Shown: positions 8,334 through 15,800 of the stretch, piece by piece
How positions within the stretch are numbered: position 1 is the stretch's first letter
How the letters are laid out: the number at the start of each line of letters is the position of its first letter
DNA from: Polyangiaceae bacterium
Lineage (GTDB): Bacteria > Myxococcota_A > Polyangia > Polyangiales > Polyangiaceae
Direction: 5' to 3'
DNA: 19,446 bases
Assembly (NCBI GenBank): GCA_041389705.1
Contig: JAWKRI010000188.1
Coordinates: forward strand, 1-19,446
Position numbers and translations under genes: made by a program
Notes under the pieces: model-generated
Seen by the model: only the letters and a program-made list of their open reading frames with translations
What the model was told of the DNA's origin: nothing
Databases searched by the model: none

Positions 8334-8399
8334 GGAGGGGAGTGCGTGTGTGCTTTGTTTACTTTGTGTATCCGCGTTCTTGACAGGCTGGCGCTCACG

Positions 8400-9512
8400 T
8401 CAGCCCGGCGCGCGGCCGGAGGGGGCGGCCTCGCGGGCGTAACGGCCGAGCCGGATCACGTCGACGAGGATCTGGGAGCCGCTCGTGCGGACGTATTCCT
8501 CGAAGGCGCTGAGGGCGGGCGTCTTCTTCTTGCGCTGAAAGGCCGTGTCGACGGTCCAGACAGCGACCTCCTTCGACGCGGCGCCGAGGAGGGTCACCAC
8601 CTTCGCGCAGAGCTCGCCGTCGGCGGGCGAGGAGGAGGCGAGCTTGGCGACGCAGCTCGCGCCGAGGAAATAGATGAGCTCGGGATCGCGGGGCACGCTG
8701 GCCTTGCCGGCGGCGAGGGCTTCGAGCGAGGGGGCTTCAAGCGCGCGCCGGGCGAAGGCGGTGAACTCGGCGCCTGCGCGGTCGCCCACGGAGCCGGCGG
8801 CGACGGCGGGCCAGAGGTGCTCTCCGACGGCGTGGAGAGCGTCCGAGAGCATGTGCCAGGCGCGCGGCGTGGGGTACGCGGGGGTCGCGTCGGTCGGTGG
8901 GGGCTCGAAGAGGCGGTCGGGGCGGGCGCGGACGAAGGCGAGGACGAGGGCGTGGACTCCATGGTTGGCGCCCCACGCGAGGAAGGACTCCGCGTCCGGC
9001 GCGAGCGCGACATGGACCATGCGATTGGCGAGCGCGGTGGCCATGGGCCGGACGAGCGCGCGATCCTCGACGCGGTTCCCGGCGCCGACGACCCGCGAGC
9101 CTTCCGGCAGCACGTAGTCGCCGAGGCGTCGATCCAGGATGAGCGAGTAGAACGCCTTCTGCACGTCGGGGACGGCGCTGTTCAGCTCGTCGATGAAGAG
9201 GAGGAACGGATCGGCGCGGAGGATGGCTCGCGGGGGGCAGAACTCGGTGACGAAGGCGTCGCCGTGGGCGCGGATGCGGGGCACGCCGATGAGATCTTCT
9301 GGCGCGATCTGCGTGCCGAGGAGCGTCACGCAGGGCAGCTCCAGCAGATCGGCCGCCTCGCGCACGAGGGCGCTCTTTCCGATCCCGGGAGGTCCCCAGA
9401 TGAACGGGGTCCGCTCGGAAGGGAGCGACAGGAGCAGCTCCACGAGCTCGGTGGGCGTGAGCGACAGCATGAGGCCGGGCGTTATAGCAGCACGCTTGGA
9501 GCCCGTGGACAT
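8400..9512 (-). CDS. MoxR-like AAA+ ATPase (AAA_5; CbbQ/NorQ/GvpN-type)
   Basis: Walker A is 'GPPGIGKS' and Walker B is 'LLFIDELNSA'. Sensor and arginine-finger regions typical of MoxR-class ATPases follow ('YVLPEGSRVVGAGNRVEDRAL...ALANRMVHV'). The listed ORF extends to 9956, but residues upstream of the ATG at 9510-9512 (MSTGSKRAAITPGLMLSLTPTELVELLLSL) are a translation of the intergenic repeat element. A second candidate ATG is at 9470. Confidence 0.85.
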   Translation of the reverse strand: MSTGSKRAAITPGLMLSLTPTELVELLLSLPSERTPFIWGPPGIGKSALVREAADLLELPCVTLLGTQIAPEDLIGVPRIRAHGDAFVTEFCPPRAILRADPFLLFIDELNSAVPDVQKAFYSLILDRRLGDYVLPEGSRVVGAGNRVEDRALVRPMATALANRMVHVALAPDAESFLAWGANHGVHALVLAFVRARPDRLFEPPPTDATPAYPTPRAWHMLSDALHAVGEHLWPAVAAGSVGDRAGAEFTAFARRALEAPSLEALAAGKASVPRDPELIYFLGASCVAKLASSSPADGELCAKVVTLLGAASKEVAVWTVDTAFQRKKKTPALSAFEEYVRTSGSQILVDVIRLGRYAREAAPSGRAPG

Positions 9513-9514
9513 CC

Positions 9515-9640
9515 ACAACGTCGTGCGTAGCCCCGTGCCCGCCTTGGAAATAGCCCCCAGGTGGCGCGGCCCGCCGCCGAGCGGAAAGGCGAAGAGCGTG
9601 GCGTGGCATGCCTTGATCCGAGCCTTCCTTGCTACGCTCC
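9515..9640. repeat. Intergenic repeat element (about 115-125 bp family), single copy in inverted orientation relative to the 12.1-12.4 kb array; it fills the MoxR/HEAT divergent spacer
   Basis: The reverse complement of 9531-9612 reads 'ggcatgccacgccacgctcttcgcctttccgctcggcggcgggccgcgccacctgggggctatttccaaggcgggcacgggg'. This aligns with copy A at 12110-12200 ('ggcatggggcgccacgctcttcgctattccgctcggcggcgggccgcgccactggaaacgtccttccaaggcggggacggtg'). The flanks ('ggatcRaggcatg') are also shared. Confidence 0.8.
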
Positions 9641-9645
9641 GCCGC

Positions 9646-10626
9646 ATGGCTGCCCTGCGCTCCTTCGACGACAAGCACGCTCGGCTGCGCGAGCTCTCGG
9701 GGGAGACCCCGGAGCGGGCGCGGGCGGAGCTGCCGCGGTTCCTCGGCGACAAGAGCGGATTTCTGGTGGGGGAGGCGGCGGACATCGCGAAGCAACACGA
9801 GCTGCGGGGGCTGGGGCCCGAGCTCGTCGCGGCGTTCATGCGGCTGATCGCGGCGGAGCCGAAGGCGGACCCGGCGTGTACGGGCAAGTGCAGGATCGTG
9901 GAGGCGCTGCTCGCGATGGACCTGAATGAGCCGGACGTGTTCCTCGCGGGGCTCAAGCACGTGCAGATCGAGGGGGCCTATCCGCTGCCGGTGGACACGG
10001 CAGGTCCGCTGCGCGGGCTGTGCGCGCACGCGCTGATTCAGGTGCACCACCGGCAAGCGCTGCTGTCGGTGACTCCCCTGCTGTTCGATCCGGATCAGGT
10101 CACGCGGGCCGAGGCGGCGGCGGCGCTGGGGGACTCGGGGCAAGAGGGGGCGGCGGCCGTCCTCCACGCGAAGCTCCTCGGCGGAGAGGGCAAGGCGGAT
10201 GTGCTGGGGGCCATCTACAAGGCGCTTCTCCGGCTCTTTCCGGAGCGGTACCTGCCTGTCGTGAAAGAGGCATTGCTGGGGTCGGTCGAGGTCGACGGGG
10301 CGGTGGAGGCGGCGGCGCTTGCGCTGGGGGAGTCGCGGGTGGAAGGGGCGCTGTCGGCGCTGCGAGAGGGGGTGTCGATCCACTCGCGCGGGCGGGAAGC
10401 GGAGGCGGTCCTGCTCGGGATTGCCCTGCTCCGGACGGACGCCGCCAATGCGTGCTTGCTCGAACGCGTGGAGAGCGCGCCGGAGGCGGCTGCAGGAATG
10501 GCGCTGTCGGCGCTTGCGTTGCACAGGCACGACGCGGGGCTCGTGGCGCGGGCGCGGGCGGTCGTGCTGGCGCGCAAGTCGAAGAAGCTCGCGGCGCTGT
10601 TCGCGGAGAGGTTCGAGAGAGAGTGA
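9646..10626 (+). CDS. HEAT-repeat (PBS-lyase HEAT-like) protein
   Basis: The ATG is at 9646 (MAALRSFDDKHARLRELSG...). It contains repeated Ala/Leu-rich helical-pair units such as 'DQVTRAEAAAALGDSGQEGAAAVLHAKLLG' and 'AVEAAALALGESRVEGALSALREGV'. The stop codon TGA at 10624-10626 overlaps the next ATG (TGATG). The upstream 150 codons of the listed ORF 9193..10626 run through the repeat element and the antisense of MoxR. Confidence 0.7.
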   Translation: MAALRSFDDKHARLRELSGETPERARAELPRFLGDKSGFLVGEAADIAKQHELRGLGPELVAAFMRLIAAEPKADPACTGKCRIVEALLAMDLNEPDVFLAGLKHVQIEGAYPLPVDTAGPLRGLCAHALIQVHHRQALLSVTPLLFDPDQVTRAEAAAALGDSGQEGAAAVLHAKLLGGEGKADVLGAIYKALLRLFPERYLPVVKEALLGSVEVDGAVEAAALALGESRVEGALSALREGVSIHSRGREAEAVLLGIALLRTDAANACLLERVESAPEAAAGMALSALALHRHDAGLVARARAVVLARKSKKLAALFAERFERE

Positions 10627-11981
10627 TGGGCGGCGCGCGGAGAGAGATCCACAGCGCGAGGACGGCGCACGGCGGGGCCGGCCGGCGGGCTGCGCGTGGG
10701 TGGCAAGGCATGCTCGGCCTCGCCGGCGAGCTCTTTTGCGCTCTGCCGCGGAGGGCGTCGGCGCGGAAGTGGGCTCTGGGCATGGCCCACCTCGGGCTGG
10801 CGCTGTCTTCTTCAGCGTGCGACGGCCCCCAAAAAACGGCTCCTCTGGAGGAGACTGCCACTCTCGTGGGCGCGACACTGACCACCTCGGGCTCGGAGCC
10901 TGCTTCTTCCTCTTCTTCGTCCTCGGGCTCCACATCGGCGGCGAGCGCGGCGCCGGCGCCGGTGCGGGAGGCTGTCACGCTCATCGCGGGGGGGGACGTG
11001 TGCATGGGGCGCTCGATGGGGCAGGAGATCCTCAAGGACCCTTCTTACGGGGCGTTCGCCTCGATCGCGAGGGTGCTGTCAGCGGCGGATATCCGGTTCG
11101 TCAACCTGGAGAGCCAGCTCAGCGATCAGAAGGGAGAGACGCAGTCTCCCACGCAGAAGCTCGTGTTCACGGGGCCTCCGGGCGGGGCGGAGGCGCTCGC
11201 GCGCGGGGGGATCGACATCGTGTCTCTGGCCAACAATCACATGTGGGATTATGGGCAGTCGGCGTTCCTGGAGACGCTCGCGAACCTGGAGCGGGCGAAG
11301 GTCAAATACGCAGGGGCGGGGCGGACGCGGGAGCGGGCGTACGGGGCAGAGGTGGTGTCGGTGGAGGGGTTTCAGGTGGCATTTCTGGCGTTCACCGATA
11401 TCTGGAATCAGGGGGCGCTGAGCAGGCACCCGGCGAAGGAGCACGTGGCGGAGGCGCGGAGAGAGGCTGTCGTGGCGGCGATCCGGGGGGCGCGCGCGCT
11501 CGCGGGGGTCACGAAGGTGGTGGTCAGTTATCACGGAGGGGAGGAGTACGTGAACGCGCCTCTCCAGCGGGCGATTGACCTGCACAGGGCGGCGATCGAC
11601 GCGGGGGCAGACGCGGTGATCGGGCATCACCCGCACGTGGCGCAGGGGATCGAGATCTACAAGGGAAAGCCCATCTTCTACAGCCTGGGGAACTTCCTCA
11701 TGCGCACGCACGGGACGGAGACAGCGACCGAGATTGGCCTCCTCGCGCGGATCGAGCTGCGGCGGAGCGGGGGGCCGCGAGCGTGGGTGTGTCCCTTTCG
11801 CATCGCGGGGTATGTGCCGCGGACGATCCCGCTGGCGGGGGACGAGCGGAGAGAGCTTTACGAGCGGGTGGTGCGGCAGAGGCTGCGGGTGATTCAAGGG
11901 TCCATCGCGCGGCCGGCGGTCGTGGGGGACACCGGCGAGGACGGGTGCGCGGAGCTCTCTCCTCCTGTTCCGAAAAAATAG
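10626..11981 (+). CDS. CapA/PgsA-family (poly-gamma-glutamate capsule biosynthesis-like metallophosphatase) protein, probably a lipoprotein or secreted with a Ser-rich tether
   Basis: CapA-family signatures include 'VTLIAGGDVCMGRS', 'IRFVNLESQLS', 'IDIVSLANNHMWDYG', 'VSYHGGEEY' and 'GADAVIGHHPHVAQGIE'. A signal-peptide-like segment 'KWALGMAHLGLALSSSAC' has a Cys followed by an S-rich linker ('SGSEPASSSSSSSGSTSAASAAP'). The start is ambiguous among the ATGs at 10626 (coupled to the upstream stop), 10710 and 10782. Confidence 0.85.
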   Translation: MGGARREIHSARTAHGGAGRRAARGWQGMLGLAGELFCALPRRASARKWALGMAHLGLALSSSACDGPQKTAPLEETATLVGATLTTSGSEPASSSSSSSGSTSAASAAPAPVREAVTLIAGGDVCMGRSMGQEILKDPSYGAFASIARVLSAADIRFVNLESQLSDQKGETQSPTQKLVFTGPPGGAEALARGGIDIVSLANNHMWDYGQSAFLETLANLERAKVKYAGAGRTRERAYGAEVVSVEGFQVAFLAFTDIWNQGALSRHPAKEHVAEARREAVVAAIRGARALAGVTKVVVSYHGGEEYVNAPLQRAIDLHRAAIDAGADAVIGHHPHVAQGIEIYKGKPIFYSLGNFLMRTHGTETATEIGLLARIELRRSGGPRAWVCPFRIAGYVPRTIPLAGDERRELYERVVRQRLRVIQGSIARPAVVGDTGEDGCAELSPPVPKK

Positions 11982-12089
11982 AAAAACTCCGTGAAATTCT
12001 GCTGGGCAGGGGTCCGGCGGCGCTTCCACGCAAAGCGGGCCTCTCGACGGTCTCGCCGATCTCGCGTTTTCGTCTGGCTGCGTGCGCCA

Positions 12090-12430
12090 CGGAACACCTT
12101 GGATCGAGGCATGGGGCGCCACGCTCTTCGCTATTCCGCTCGGCGGCGGGCCGCGCCACTGGAAACGTCCTTCCAAGGCGGGGACGGTGCTTCGCAACAC
12201 GTGGTGGACGCATCTCAGAAGAGAGCGAGAGGCGATACGCTCTTCGCTATTCCGCTCGGCGGCGGGCCGCGCCACGGGAAGCGTCCTTCCAAGGCGGGGA
12301 CGGTGCTTCGCAATACGTGGTGGATGGATCCTCAGAAGAGAGCGGGAGGCGCCACGCTCTTCCGCGCCACGGGAAGCGTCCTTCCAAGGCGGGGACGGTG
12401 CTTCGCAACACGTGGTGGAGAGATCCACAG
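12090..12430. repeat. Three tandem copies (period 116-117 bp) of the intergenic repeat element; the third copy carries a 22-bp internal deletion
   Basis: The anchor 'cgctcttcgc' starts at 12122, 12238 and 12355. Each unit contains '...ccgctcggcggcgggccgcgccac(t/g)gg(a)aa(a/g)cgtccttccaaggcggggacggtgcttcgcaa(c/t)acgtggtgga' followed by the spacer 'tc(c)tcagaagagagcg(a/g)gaggcg'. The array abuts the capA stop (11981) and the REC stop (12435). Confidence 0.85.
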
Positions 12431-12434
12431 GCCA

Positions 12435-12800
12435 TCAGGCGCTGCGGAGGGCGGCTTCGAGGCGCTCGATGTCGGGGGGCTTGGCGAAGTGGCGATCGAA
12501 GCCGGCGGCGCGGGCACGCTCCACGTCCGAGGGCTGCGTGTAGCCCGTGAGGGCGATGAGGTGGATGGACCGGAGCTCGGGATCGGCGCGCATCCCGCGG
12601 GCGACCTCGTAGCCGTCCATCCCGGGGAGGCCGATGTCGCAGATCACGATCTCCGGGCGGCGATCGCGGGCGGCGCGAAGCCCGCTCGGGCCGTCGCGGG
12701 CGATGTCGACCTCGTGGCCCTCCATCTCCAGAAAATCGCGGAGGGCCTCGGCGCCGTCGGGGTTGTCGTCGATGATCAGGACGCGGCGGCCCTTGCCGGG
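12435..12800 (-). pseudogene. Receiver (REC) domain of the hybrid sensor kinase, out of frame with the upstream kinase body (apparent -1 frameshift in the Pro/Glu-rich linker); no independent start codon
   Basis: The frame open upstream of the listed ORF reads '...GASGAGASPGKGRRVLIIDDNPDGAEALRDFLEMEGHEVDIARDGPSGL...ICDIGLPGMDGYEV...LIALTGY...FAKP'. This is a complete CheY-like receiver with acidic pocket DD, phospho-acceptor D, T and K. No ATG, GTG or TTG lies between the upstream stop and 'RRVLIIDD'. The kinase frame stops at 12776-12778, inside the REC coding sequence. Confidence 0.7.
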
Positions 12801-15800
12801 AGAGGCCCCGGCTCCGGAGGCGCCTCGGGCTCGGGGGCCGGCTCGGCGAGCGGGAGGCAGACCTCGAGCTCGCTGCCTTGACCGAGACCCTCGCTGCGCG
12901 CGCGAACGGCGCCCCCGTGGAGATCCACGAGGCGGCGCACCAGCGAGAGGCCGAGGCCGAGGCCGCCCTTGTTGCGGTCCAGCGAGACGTCGGCCTGAAC
13001 GAAGGGCTGGAAGAGGCGCTCCACGGTCTCCCGCGCCATGCCGATGCCGTCGTCCGTCACGGAGAGGAGCGCGCTCGGGCTCGACCCGCAGGGCCCGAAG
13101 CCAGGGCCGCTGCGGACCGAAACCTCGGTCTTGCCGCCCTCGCGGGAGAACTTGACCGCGTTCTGGAGGAGGTTGCCCACCACCTGCGCGATGCGCGCGG
13201 GGTCCACCATCACGAGGACCGGCGACGGCGGCAGCGAGAGACGGAGCTCGACGCCGGCGCGCTCGAAGATGGTGCGGTGATCGTCGGTCGTGCGGCGCGC
13301 GATGGCGCAGAGATCAGCGCGCTCGCGCTGGAGACGGATGCGGTTCTCGGAGATGCGGGTGATGTCGAGGAGGTCGTCGACGAGGCGAGAGAGCTGCTCG
13401 ATCTGGCGGCGGATCACATCCAGTGCGCGGCTCGCCTGATCGGAGCCGGCGTCCACGCGCGCGAGGATCTGGAGGCTCGTGCGGATGGGGGCGAGCGGGT
13501 TCCGCAGCTCGTGCGAGAGGAGGGCGAGGAACTCGCTCTTTCGCCGATTGGCCTCCTGAGAGACCTCCTCGGCGGTGACGAGATCGTGGATGTCCGTGCT
13601 CGTGCCGATCCACTTGACGACGCGGGACTCGTCGTCACGGAGGGGGACCGCGCGGCTGCGGAACCAGCGGTAGGCGCCCTCGGCGCTCTGGAGGCGGAGC
13701 TTGAGGTCGATGGTGTCGCCGGAGGAGACGCCCTGCTTCCAGGCTTCCATCACGGCGGCGCGATCGTCGGGGTGCACCGTCTCCAGCCAGCCGAGGCCCA
13801 GGTTGCGCTCGGCAGGGACGCCCGTGTAGTCGATCCACTGGCGGCTCACGAAGTCCCTCGTTCCGTCGGGCGCGCAGGTCCACACGAGCTGAGGCATGGA
13901 GTCGAGCATCTCGCGGCTGCGGCGCTCGGCCTCGCGCGAGGCGCGCTCCCAGCGGTTGCGCTCGGTGATGTCCTGGAGGATGCCGCTGACCCCGTAGATG
14001 TTTCCGTCCGCGTCGTGGAGAGGGAAGCGGTAGGCGAGGAAGGTGTGCTCGCCGTCGGGGAGCGTGGCGAGATCCTCCAGGACGACGACGTCGCCGCAGT
14101 CGAGCACGCGCTGATCGTGCTCCATGTAGCGCTGCGCGCGGTCGGGCGGGAACACGTCGAACGAGGTCTTGCCGATGACCTCCTCCATCCGCTTGCCGGT
14201 GTGGGCGAGGAACTGCCGGTTGACCTTCACGAAGCGGCCCGACATGTCCTTGAGGAAGATGAGGAGCGGGCTCGCGTCGAGGATGTCCTTGAGGAGGTGC
14301 TCGCTCTCGCGCACCGCCGCCTCCGCGCGCTTGATGCGCGTCACGTCGGTGAAGGTCGCGACGGCTCCGGCGATGACGTCGTCGACGGTGCGGTAAGGCA
14401 GGACGCGCAGCATGAACCAGGCGTCGTCGGTGTGGACCTCCTTCTCGATGGGGATGAGGCTCGCGAGCACGCCCTTCACGTCGGCGATGAGATCGGTGCC
14501 GGCGAAGCGGGGCACGAGGTCCGCGAGGGGGCGGCCGACGTCGGTGTCGATGAGGCTGAAGAGCGAGGTCGCGGCGGGCGTGAAGCGCGTGACGGAGAGC
14601 TCGCGGTTGAGGAAGATGGTGGCGACGGACGTGCTCGCGAGCAGGTTCTGGAGATCGCTGTTCGTGACGCCGAGCTCCTTCACCATCGCGCGCAGCTCGG
14701 CGTTGACGGTCTCGAGCTCCTCGTTCACGGACTGGAGCTCTTCCTTGGAGGTCTGGAGCTCCTCGTTGGCGCTCTGGAGCTCCTCGTTGGTGCTCATGAG
14801 CTCCTCGTTCGAGCTCTTGAGCTCCTGGTTGGTGGACTCGAGCTCGCTGACGGCGGCCTGCAGGTCGGCGCGCGTGGTCGTCAGCTCGCTCTCCAGTTGG
14901 GCGATGAGCGGCTCGTGGGCGCTGAGGTCCTGGAGATCCGCCGTGAGCGCCGTGTCGGGCGCGTGCTCCTCCAGGACGAGCATGCGCAGGCCGGCCGCGG
15001 CGCCGCCCCCCGGCGCGGGGCGCACCGTGAGGCGGAGGTGCTGCACCGCCCCGCTGGCCGAGACGACGACGCGCGGCACGGTGACGGCCTGCGACGACTC
15101 CATCGAGTCCGCGAGCGCCGTGCGCAGCGCGTGCCGGAGCACCCCCTCGGCGTGGTCCAGAATATTGCCTGTATACACCCCGGCGCGCGGGGAGAGGTAG
15201 CGGGAGAAGGGGCCGGCGACGGCGAGGATCTCGGCGCGATCGTCGACCAGCGCGCAGGCGGGGGCGTACTCCTCCAGGATCGTCCGCTCGAACGCGACGG
15301 TCACGGCCTGCTTCGCGCTCCGACTGCCCAGCTCGGAGGCGACGTGGTGCACGCGCGGGGGCGCGGGGCGGTGCTGGATCTGGAAGTCGAAGCTCATGCG
15401 GCCGACCATCTCGCGGCGCTGGAAGATGCGGTGCACCTTGTCGATGGGCACGAACATCTCGCCCTGGCTCGCGGCGTCCTCCGAGGGGCCGAGGAACAGG
15501 TAGCCTCCCCGGCGGAGCGCGTAGTGGAAGAGGGGCATCACGCGGCGCTGCAAGGCGGCGTCGAAGTAGATGAGCACGTTGCGGCACGAGACGAGATCGA
15601 TCTGCGAAAAGGGCGGATCGCGGAGGAGGTTGTGCACCGAGAAGACGCACATCTCACGCAGCTCCTTGGCCACGTGGTAGGCGCCGTGCTGGTGGACGAA
15701 GAAGCGCTGGAGCCTCGCGGGCGACACGTCCTCCGCGATCGCCTCGCTGTAGCGCCCCGCCCGCGCCGTCTGGAGGGCGCCCGCGTCGATGTCGGTGGCG

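Follow-up and report, generated by a model that had tools for sequence, protein, structure and literature searches.

A GC-rich intergenic repeat of about 116 bp in solo and tandem copies at two nearby sites of a Polyangiaceae contig

Introduction

Several kinds of short non-coding repeat are known from the spaces between bacterial genes, and we set beside them here a GC-rich element of about 116 bp that lies in a 19,446-nt contig of a Polyangiaceae bacterium (GenBank assembly GCA_041389705.1, contig JAWKRI010000188.1), the whole of which is called the window below. The mycobacterial interspersed repetitive units (MIRUs), reportedly described by Supply and co-workers in 1997, are said to consist of head-to-tail tandem units of 46-101 bp, found at numerous intergenic loci. 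The BOX elements of Streptococcus pneumoniae are modular, in the order boxA-boxB(n)-boxC, with the 45-nt boxB alone being reiterated and the whole adopting a stable fold. Prokaryotic MITEs (miniature transposable elements with inverted repeats), among them Correia, ERIC, Chunjie and QMITE, have had their defining features set out and are typically AT-rich (PMC10969869). Repetitive extragenic palindromes (REPs) are short, number as a rule more than 100 copies and alternate in orientation within bacterial interspersed mosaic elements (BIMEs) (PMC2817692). Finally, a survey of 613 prokaryotes reports a class of species-specific repeats in 97% of species (PMC3372372).

The element occurs four times in the 19.4-kb window, as one inverted solo copy (A) and three head-to-tail copies (B, C and D). 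We put at about even odds (a probability of roughly 0.5) the reading that it is a small, non-coding, lineage-specific interspersed repeat of the MITE, MIRU or BOX kind, with a unit of about 116 bp. In broad terms, it ranks among the non-autonomous or "selfish" repeats of small size that lie between genes; the sequence family is new, but its kind is known and common, that of the typical species-specific intergenic repeat.

By analogy of arrangement, the element appears most like interspersed minisatellites such as MIRUs, with which it shares a non-coding unit of about 100 bp, a head-to-tail array of variable number at one locus, presence at more than one intergenic locus and unit-length variants. 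MIRUs, however, lie inside operons in one orientation and contain short open reading frames (ORFs) that overlap the stop and start codons of their neighbors, whereas this element occupies divergent and convergent gaps, has one inverted copy, holds no ORFs or conserved frame and is known from only two loci, both within 19.4 kb. Its likeness to BOX elements lies in a left-end module found on the solo copy and on the first array unit, a repeated core and a distinct right end, but in this element almost all of the unit is reiterated, and it folds no better than chance. Like MITEs, it is shorter than 500 bp, non-coding and intergenic, has empty sites in relatives and possibly has short inverted termini, which in MITEs measure about 4-30 bp, and a 5-bp flanking repeat; its inverted copies also bracket a gene pair, as pairs of MITEs can.

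With REPs and BIMEs the element has in common that it is GC-rich, extragenic and clustered. The assignment to REP/BIME made in a first-pass annotation of this DNA nevertheless fails, as the unit is 116 nt long and not a palindrome of 20-40 nt, copies B to D all lie head to tail on the plus strand instead of alternating, and there is no conserved GTAG. The element resembles the surveyed species-specific repeats in being longer than 85 bp and shorter than 200 bp, in having no detectable similarity to other species and in its low known copy number; theirs is a descriptive category and not a mechanism. A CRISPR array was also considered and rejected, because the period is repeated over its full 116 nt and unique spacers are lacking.

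Results

Four copies of one unit at two intergenic sites

Copy A (9504-9619, minus strand) is a solo unit of 116 nt, inverted relative to the array, and its match to a profile of the family covers 9505-9628. The array lies on the plus strand and begins with copy B (12100-12215, 116 nt), whose left end, GGATCGAGGCATG, is common to copy A. It continues with copy C (12216-12332, 117 nt), the 5' part of which, CAGAAGAGAGCG...CGCTCTTC, forms a junction hairpin, and closes with copy D (12333-12427, 95 nt), from which the 22 nt GCTATTCCGCTCGGCGGCGGGC are missing and whose end lies 7 nt short of the stop codon of a receiver domain (REC). The solo copy and the first array unit have a left-end module in common; an internally reiterated core and a distinct right end, GTGGA..TCCAC, complete the arrangement. 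Pairwise identities are 83% for A-B, 85% for A-C, 89% for B-C and 93% for C-D, and A is 83-87% identical to B-D.

Repeat finding returned a direct family at 12115-12214, 12231-12330 and 12326-12425, with four inverted pairs tying 9510-9622 to the array, and TRF gave a period of 116 with 2.1 copies and 91% matches. A profile hidden Markov model (HMM) built from the four copies scored its own members at 87-129 bits (nhmmer, E values of 1e-27 to 1e-39), the next best hit in the window reaching 5 bits. The core 26-mer TTCCAAGGCGGGNACGGNGCTNCGCA occurs four times in the window against 0.00 expected in shuffles, and the blocks CGCCACGCTCTT, CCGCGCCAC and TTCCAAGGCGGG.ACGG.GCT.CGCA are invariant across the copies. 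The element has a G+C content of 65-69%, that of the window being 70%. These results bear out the first-pass description of a four-copy repeat family with one inverted and three tandem members, the last of them with a 22-bp deletion.

Copy A stands between the divergent moxR gene and a HEAT-repeat gene, and the array between the convergent capA gene and the gene for a kinase-REC fusion. The spacer from the capA stop to the REC stop measures 453 bp (11982-12434), as had been noted. The array was said to fill it; at 12091-12428 it covers about 75%, the first ~109 bp (11982-12090) being unique, with no similarity to relatives and no terminator-like site. The moxR/HEAT spacer, given earlier as 133 bp and as spanned essentially in full by the solo copy, is in fact 175 bp long (9471-9645, between the MoxR ATG at 9470 and the HEAT ATG at 9646), and copy A (about 9504-9628) occupies about 70% of it.

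Empty sites in related loci mark copy A as an insertion

Related Polyangiaceae loci were reached through MoxR homologs of 83-92% protein identity. Two of them, L013 and L033, keep an orthologous HEAT gene divergent from moxR (the HEAT N-termini read MAALRSFDDKHARLREL in the window and VAAPRTFDEKRARLRAL in L013), with gaps of 53 bp and 65 bp, respectively, against 175 bp in the window. Copy A is absent from both of these orthologous gaps, and the extra ~120 bp of the window falls between conserved flank motifs and corresponds to the element. Comparison of the gaps shows copy A as an insertion of about 120 bp relative to these empty sites, which therefore arrived after the split from the L013 and L033 lineages.

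Copy A is bracketed on the plus strand by a 5-bp direct repeat, GAGCC (9499-9503 and 9620-9624), a candidate target-site duplication (TSD). The pair encloses exactly 116 nt, the tandem period, although a similar coincidence was found in 13% of control zones of the contig and is not significant. The exact span of one period suggests that copy A is a discrete unit.

The flank on the moxR side carries the motif TTATAGCAGC (9482-9491, minus strand; GCTGCTATAA in the sense of moxR), which lies 11 nt upstream of the moxR ATG and is intact despite the insertion. The motif recurs 9-11 nt upstream of the moxR start in the window and in all six relatives that have this region (L010, L011, L013, L014, L032 and L033), its TTATA core being invariant and the next two bases nearly so. 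GCTGCTATAA resembles an extended -10 element and would be near enough to the start codon to yield a near-leaderless mRNA, and it may be the moxR promoter. The flank on the HEAT side, GCTAC(G/C)CTC, is also conserved and holds, at 6-9 nt upstream of where the HEAT gene starts, a hexamer of the form TAnnnT. The hexamer of the window is TACGCT (9633-9638, plus strand), a candidate -10-like hexamer 7 nt upstream of the ATG and likewise intact, with TACCCT as its counterpart in L013 and TAATCT in L033. If both motifs are promoters, copy A would separate two core promoters without interrupting either. The regulatory role that the first-pass annotation envisaged here is unsupported, and an effect on moxR or the HEAT gene is at most conjectural.

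Both repeat sites fall at points where the relatives depart from one another in gene order: in L010 the moxR/HEAT gap holds Uma2 and P450 genes, and L010, L033 and L046 have different genes downstream of capA.

The element is non-coding

The GC signal at third codon positions is gone across 11940-12420 and weakened across 9480-9640, and both repeat sites are on this account non-coding. A coding element was rejected because no frame survives the unit spacings of 116 and 95 nt and the deletion of 22 nt, the indels not being multiples of three. Protein accessions run consecutively from MoxR (ending in 499) to the kinase (ending in 503), with HEAT, capA and REC between them, a series into which no gene called in either spacer would fit; MEZ4314499.1 is encoded by the metagenome-assembled genome (MAG) of this contig and MEZ4293644.1 by a sister MAG, on a contig of 203,907 bp. 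A concatenated six-frame translation of the element had no match at E<=10 among 5.8 billion proteins.

The family appears lineage-restricted

Neither the profile nor blastn found the element in twelve related Polyangiaceae loci totaling about 118 kb (L010-L014, L032, L033 and L045-L049), a set that includes the region downstream of the closest ortholog of the kinase-REC fusion (L045, 69% identity). Self-blast of these loci gave no analogous repeat families. The sole intergenic tandem signal among them, which TRF did not report, is a CRISPR array at the end of the metagenome contig L014 (10396-10660), in which the repeat GCTTCAATGGGGCCGGCATCTCTCGATGCCGGAGGG occurs four times with a period of 73 nt; it bears no relation to the element.

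In wider collections, the seed TTCCAAGGCGGGNACGGNGCT retrieved from species-representative genomes (one for each of 185,579 species) nine singletons in unrelated phyla, all matching only around the seed and scoring 12-20 bits, and the pattern CCGCGCCACN{8,16}TTCCAAGGCGGG retrieved from JGI metagenomes 17 singletons, all at 18 bits or less. Two scans of IMG/VR viral contigs gave chance matches only; these collection scans needed 17-26 specified bases to match exactly, so that diverged relatives could be missed, and as they did not retrieve the window's own sequence either, those collections do not include the source organism. Plasmids and phages gave no match by blastn, and a search of a limited set of papers for myxobacterial intergenic repeats yielded nothing specific. 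As far as can be seen from these comparisons, the family appears restricted to its lineage. Being absent from relatives and from all the collections scanned, the element agrees with a common class, the species-specific repeats of less than 200 bp (PMC3372372).

Folding and regulatory signals

The first-pass annotation had also raised a family of structured small RNAs, which the following tests do not support. Neither the whole window nor the two spacers taken by themselves matched an Rfam family, at the gathering score or at E<=10, the best sub-threshold hits scoring 12-21 bits where the thresholds are 36-99 bits; ARAGORN returned neither a tRNA nor a tmRNA. On both strands, the folds of copies A, B and C are no more stable than those of their dinucleotide shuffles (z of +1.2 to -1.0). 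Copy D does fold better (z about -2.5 to -2.6), by means of the junction hairpin and a GGAUCC-based closing stem, and hairpins are possible in copy D and at the unit junctions (GAAGAGAGCG...CGCTCTTC and GGAUCCUC...GAGAGAUCC). In RNAalifold, the covariation term was positive, that is, penalizing, on both strands, with 2/37 and 1/35 compensated pairs, in a test that has little power in either direction as it sees only two independent lineages (A versus B-D). In a central GGAAG/CUUCC stem, pairing in copy A is preserved through G-U, on the sense strand only. A consensus scan found no sigma-70-like promoter and no intrinsic-terminator-like site in either spacer. We also considered an integron attC site, a retron non-coding RNA, an IS200/605 omega-RNA and a bridge RNA and rejected them on anatomy or Rfam results alone, there being no matching motif, no adjacent reverse transcriptase or transposase and no Rfam match.

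Discussion

Under the reading that we favor, a small lineage-specific interspersed repeat, the short moxR/HEAT gap received one unit, inverted, after the split from the relatives whose gaps measure 53-65 bp, in what looks like a recent event and presumably by some element-specific or recombination-based process. At the second site, 2.5 kb from copy A, three head-to-tail units stand with graded divergence; because C and D (93%) are closer to each other than B is to C (89%) or A to B (83%), the array may have grown by unequal recombination or replication slippage, and the deletion of 22 nt from one unit would have come later. For the cell, the element is probably neutral. As side effects, its insertion would have set the putative -10 boxes of the two divergent genes about 120 bp apart and replaced their upstream promoter DNA, and the array would add about 340 nt of extra 3' sequence between the convergent capA and kinase-REC genes. 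The earlier proposal of a small dispersed or mobile repeat is, in a broad sense, in keeping with this discrete non-coding unit and its solo insertion against empty sites.

Several observations weigh against this reading. The known copies are confined to two sites 2.5 kb apart within the window, and "interspersed" here means two loci only. Neither a related transposase nor a full-length parent element is known. No matching direct duplication is seen at the array ends, and the GAGCC pair around copy A has the 13% background given above. The best terminal inverted match at the array ends is CCT-TGGATC/GATCCACAGG, copy A offering only CACGCT, and the terminal inverted repeats (TIRs) are minimal, GGATC/GATCC lying within the self-complementary motif GGATCC. 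The element is GC-rich (65-69%), as opposed to AT-rich MITEs (PMC10969869). It also departs from MITEs in that its TIR of about 5-9 bp is trivially palindromic, its TSD is not significant, no parent insertion sequence is known and head-to-tail tandem arrays are atypical of the class. Of the MITE-like character suggested at first, the size, the intergenic location and the empty sites fit; the termini and the target duplication give weak evidence, the base composition is GC-rich and the tandem array is unusual for the class.

The main rival is a purely local duplication, in which the unit arose at one site, was copied once in inverted orientation to the other, 2.5 kb away, by template switching or ectopic repair, and was then amplified in tandem, with no genome-wide family and no mobility. 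We hold this to be somewhat unlikely. It would account for all known copies lying within 3 kb, for the weak TIR and TSD evidence and for the empty returns from the external collections and from the translated-ORF search, the latter including the proteins annotated on both MAGs; most species-specific repeats, moreover, have two copies only (PMC3372372). Yet the inserted piece is a clean single unit, its 116 nt equal to the tandem period, in a gap otherwise of 53-65 bp, which is more typical of element insertion than of repair patching. Copy A also differs from B-D by 13-17% and B-D among themselves by 7-13%, and therefore at least three events separated in time are needed. An artefact of short-read metagenome assembly that created or miscounted the array or the solo copy is highly improbable: the window is the whole 19,446-bp MAG contig, the kinase-REC gene has at least one probable frameshift error and tandem copy number is hard to assemble, but the copies differ by 7-17% and are therefore not collapsed or duplicated reads, gene order in the sister MAG is identical, judged from consecutive accession numbers, and the contig ends lie outside the element.

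Two functional explanations were also weighed. A cis-acting or small RNA, that is, a transcribed structured leader, a 3'-UTR stabilizer or terminator, or a small RNA family, would have the unit transcribed in sense orientation relative to the DNA upstream of moxR and to the capA 3' UTR. The UTR-like positions, the hairpins of copy D and the junctions with the z score of D, and the strand-specific G-U pairing of copy A are in keeping with it, and we regard it as improbable all the same, given the lack of an Rfam family even at E<=10, the shuffle-like folding of A, B and C, the positive covariation term and the lack of terminator-like or sigma-70-like sites in either spacer. The element is, furthermore, not conserved at the orthologous sites of any relative examined, and copy D tolerates an internal deletion of 22 nt. 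An array of binding sites for a protein, for example a nucleoid-associated protein or a transcription factor, at the moxR/HEAT promoter region and at the convergent gene ends is quite improbable. It could explain the invariant blocks and the position of the element, which has a putative -10 box of the divergent gene pair on either side, but block conservation is uninformative where A and B-D are the only independent lineages, none of the relatives examined has the motif in this promoter region and no candidate binding protein is known.

Returning to the lineage-specific interspersed repeat, we consider improbable its boldest form, in which the element founds a GC-rich, MITE-like mobile family that is specific to one lineage of Polyangiaceae and has a unit of 116 nt, termini of GGATC and a target duplication of 5 bp, able to form tandem arrays and here bracketing HEAT-capA as an inverted pair beside the vault (MVP)-MoxR-VWA cluster. 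If this were true, the inverted pair could mediate inversion or mobilization of the HEAT-capA cassette or rewire the divergent moxR/HEAT promoters. Confirmation genome-wide would make the element a new small repeat family in the large genomes of Polyangiaceae, which are poorly studied for repeats, a potential strain-typing marker of the variable-number tandem repeat kind, and a possible source of promoter rewiring and rearrangement beside the MVP/MoxR/VWA cluster. The element opens no long-standing question, and nothing ties it functionally to the vault-adjacent genes.

Gene context of the two sites

Pfam assigned the neighbors of both sites. The left neighbor of copy A is moxR (8400-9470, minus strand), encoding a MoxR-type AAA_5 ATPase, and the right neighbor is the HEAT-repeat protein gene (9646-10626, plus strand). 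The PGA_cap (CapA-like) gene follows at 10623-11981 on the plus strand; its start is uncertain and its stop lies 109 nt upstream of the array. The HEAT stop (10626) overlaps the ORF that carries the PGA_cap domain. Beyond the array, on the minus strand, come the REC domain (12435-12725), the C-terminal part of a CheB-CheR-PAS histidine kinase, with a stop that abuts copy D, and the kinase itself (12776-16927). Other products of the window include a PAS histidine kinase, a sulfatase-domain protein, an amine oxidase-methyltransferase, a DUF2201 VWA/metallopeptidase protein and a homolog of the major vault protein (MVP) that matches MVP_shoulder at 2.4e-30.

In the sister MAG, MoxR is identical, the 203,907-bp contig encodes a near-identical, intact kinase-REC fusion of 1482 aa, and the order kinase-REC, capA, HEAT, MoxR is as in the window, again by consecutive accession numbers. 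In our contig, the kinase (stop at 12776) and REC are in different frames, with REC lacking its first ~20 residues, and the intact sister protein (P0241, ...EPEAPPEPGASPGKGRRVLIIDDNPDG...) has the same C-terminus as the REC of the window, which places a frameshift in our contig at about 12726-12800. It could be either an assembly error or a pseudogene. Inside the kinase gene (14694-14845), a 21-nt tandem repeat of about seven copies encodes heptad-like ELxSxNEEL repeats, which suggest that a coiled coil links the CheR part to the PAS part.

To the left of copy A, the MVP homolog (MVP_shoulder, Vault_3), the DUF2201_N/DUF2201 VWA-metallopeptidase gene and the MoxR AAA_5 gene occupy 3696-9470 on the minus strand. 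This three-gene cluster is kept across many Polyangiaceae contigs (L010, L011, L013, L014 and L047), and the bacterial MVP gene has a fixed MoxR-VWA partner pair. The gap between MVP and DUF2201 (6231-6866 in the window) measures about 640-680 bp, compared with 38-114 bp in relatives, and holds what are, by eye, remnants of an RHH-type antitoxin (...LIREAITEYLGRP...) and of the C-terminal part of a PIN-like toxin (...IDIVDYLIAGAVRRTGAQLMTLNVKHFPMFPGL...); it looks like a decayed vapBC-like insertion. Together with the gene-order breakpoints at the two repeat sites, this insertion fits the idea of permissive insertion sites, though it proves nothing. The longest ORF with a sulfatase domain (1361-4423) overlaps the MVP gene (3696-6182) by about 730 nt in another frame, both being on the minus strand. 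As the sulfatase domain begins only at residue 649 of this 1020-aa ORF, the true start must lie downstream of 3696.

Relatives also carry an extra gene of 325-347 aa, without a Pfam match, that adjoins the HEAT gene (L010, 5672-6649; L013, 4538-5524; L033, 4591-5634); in L010 and L033 it stands between the HEAT gene and capA, and the window lacks it.

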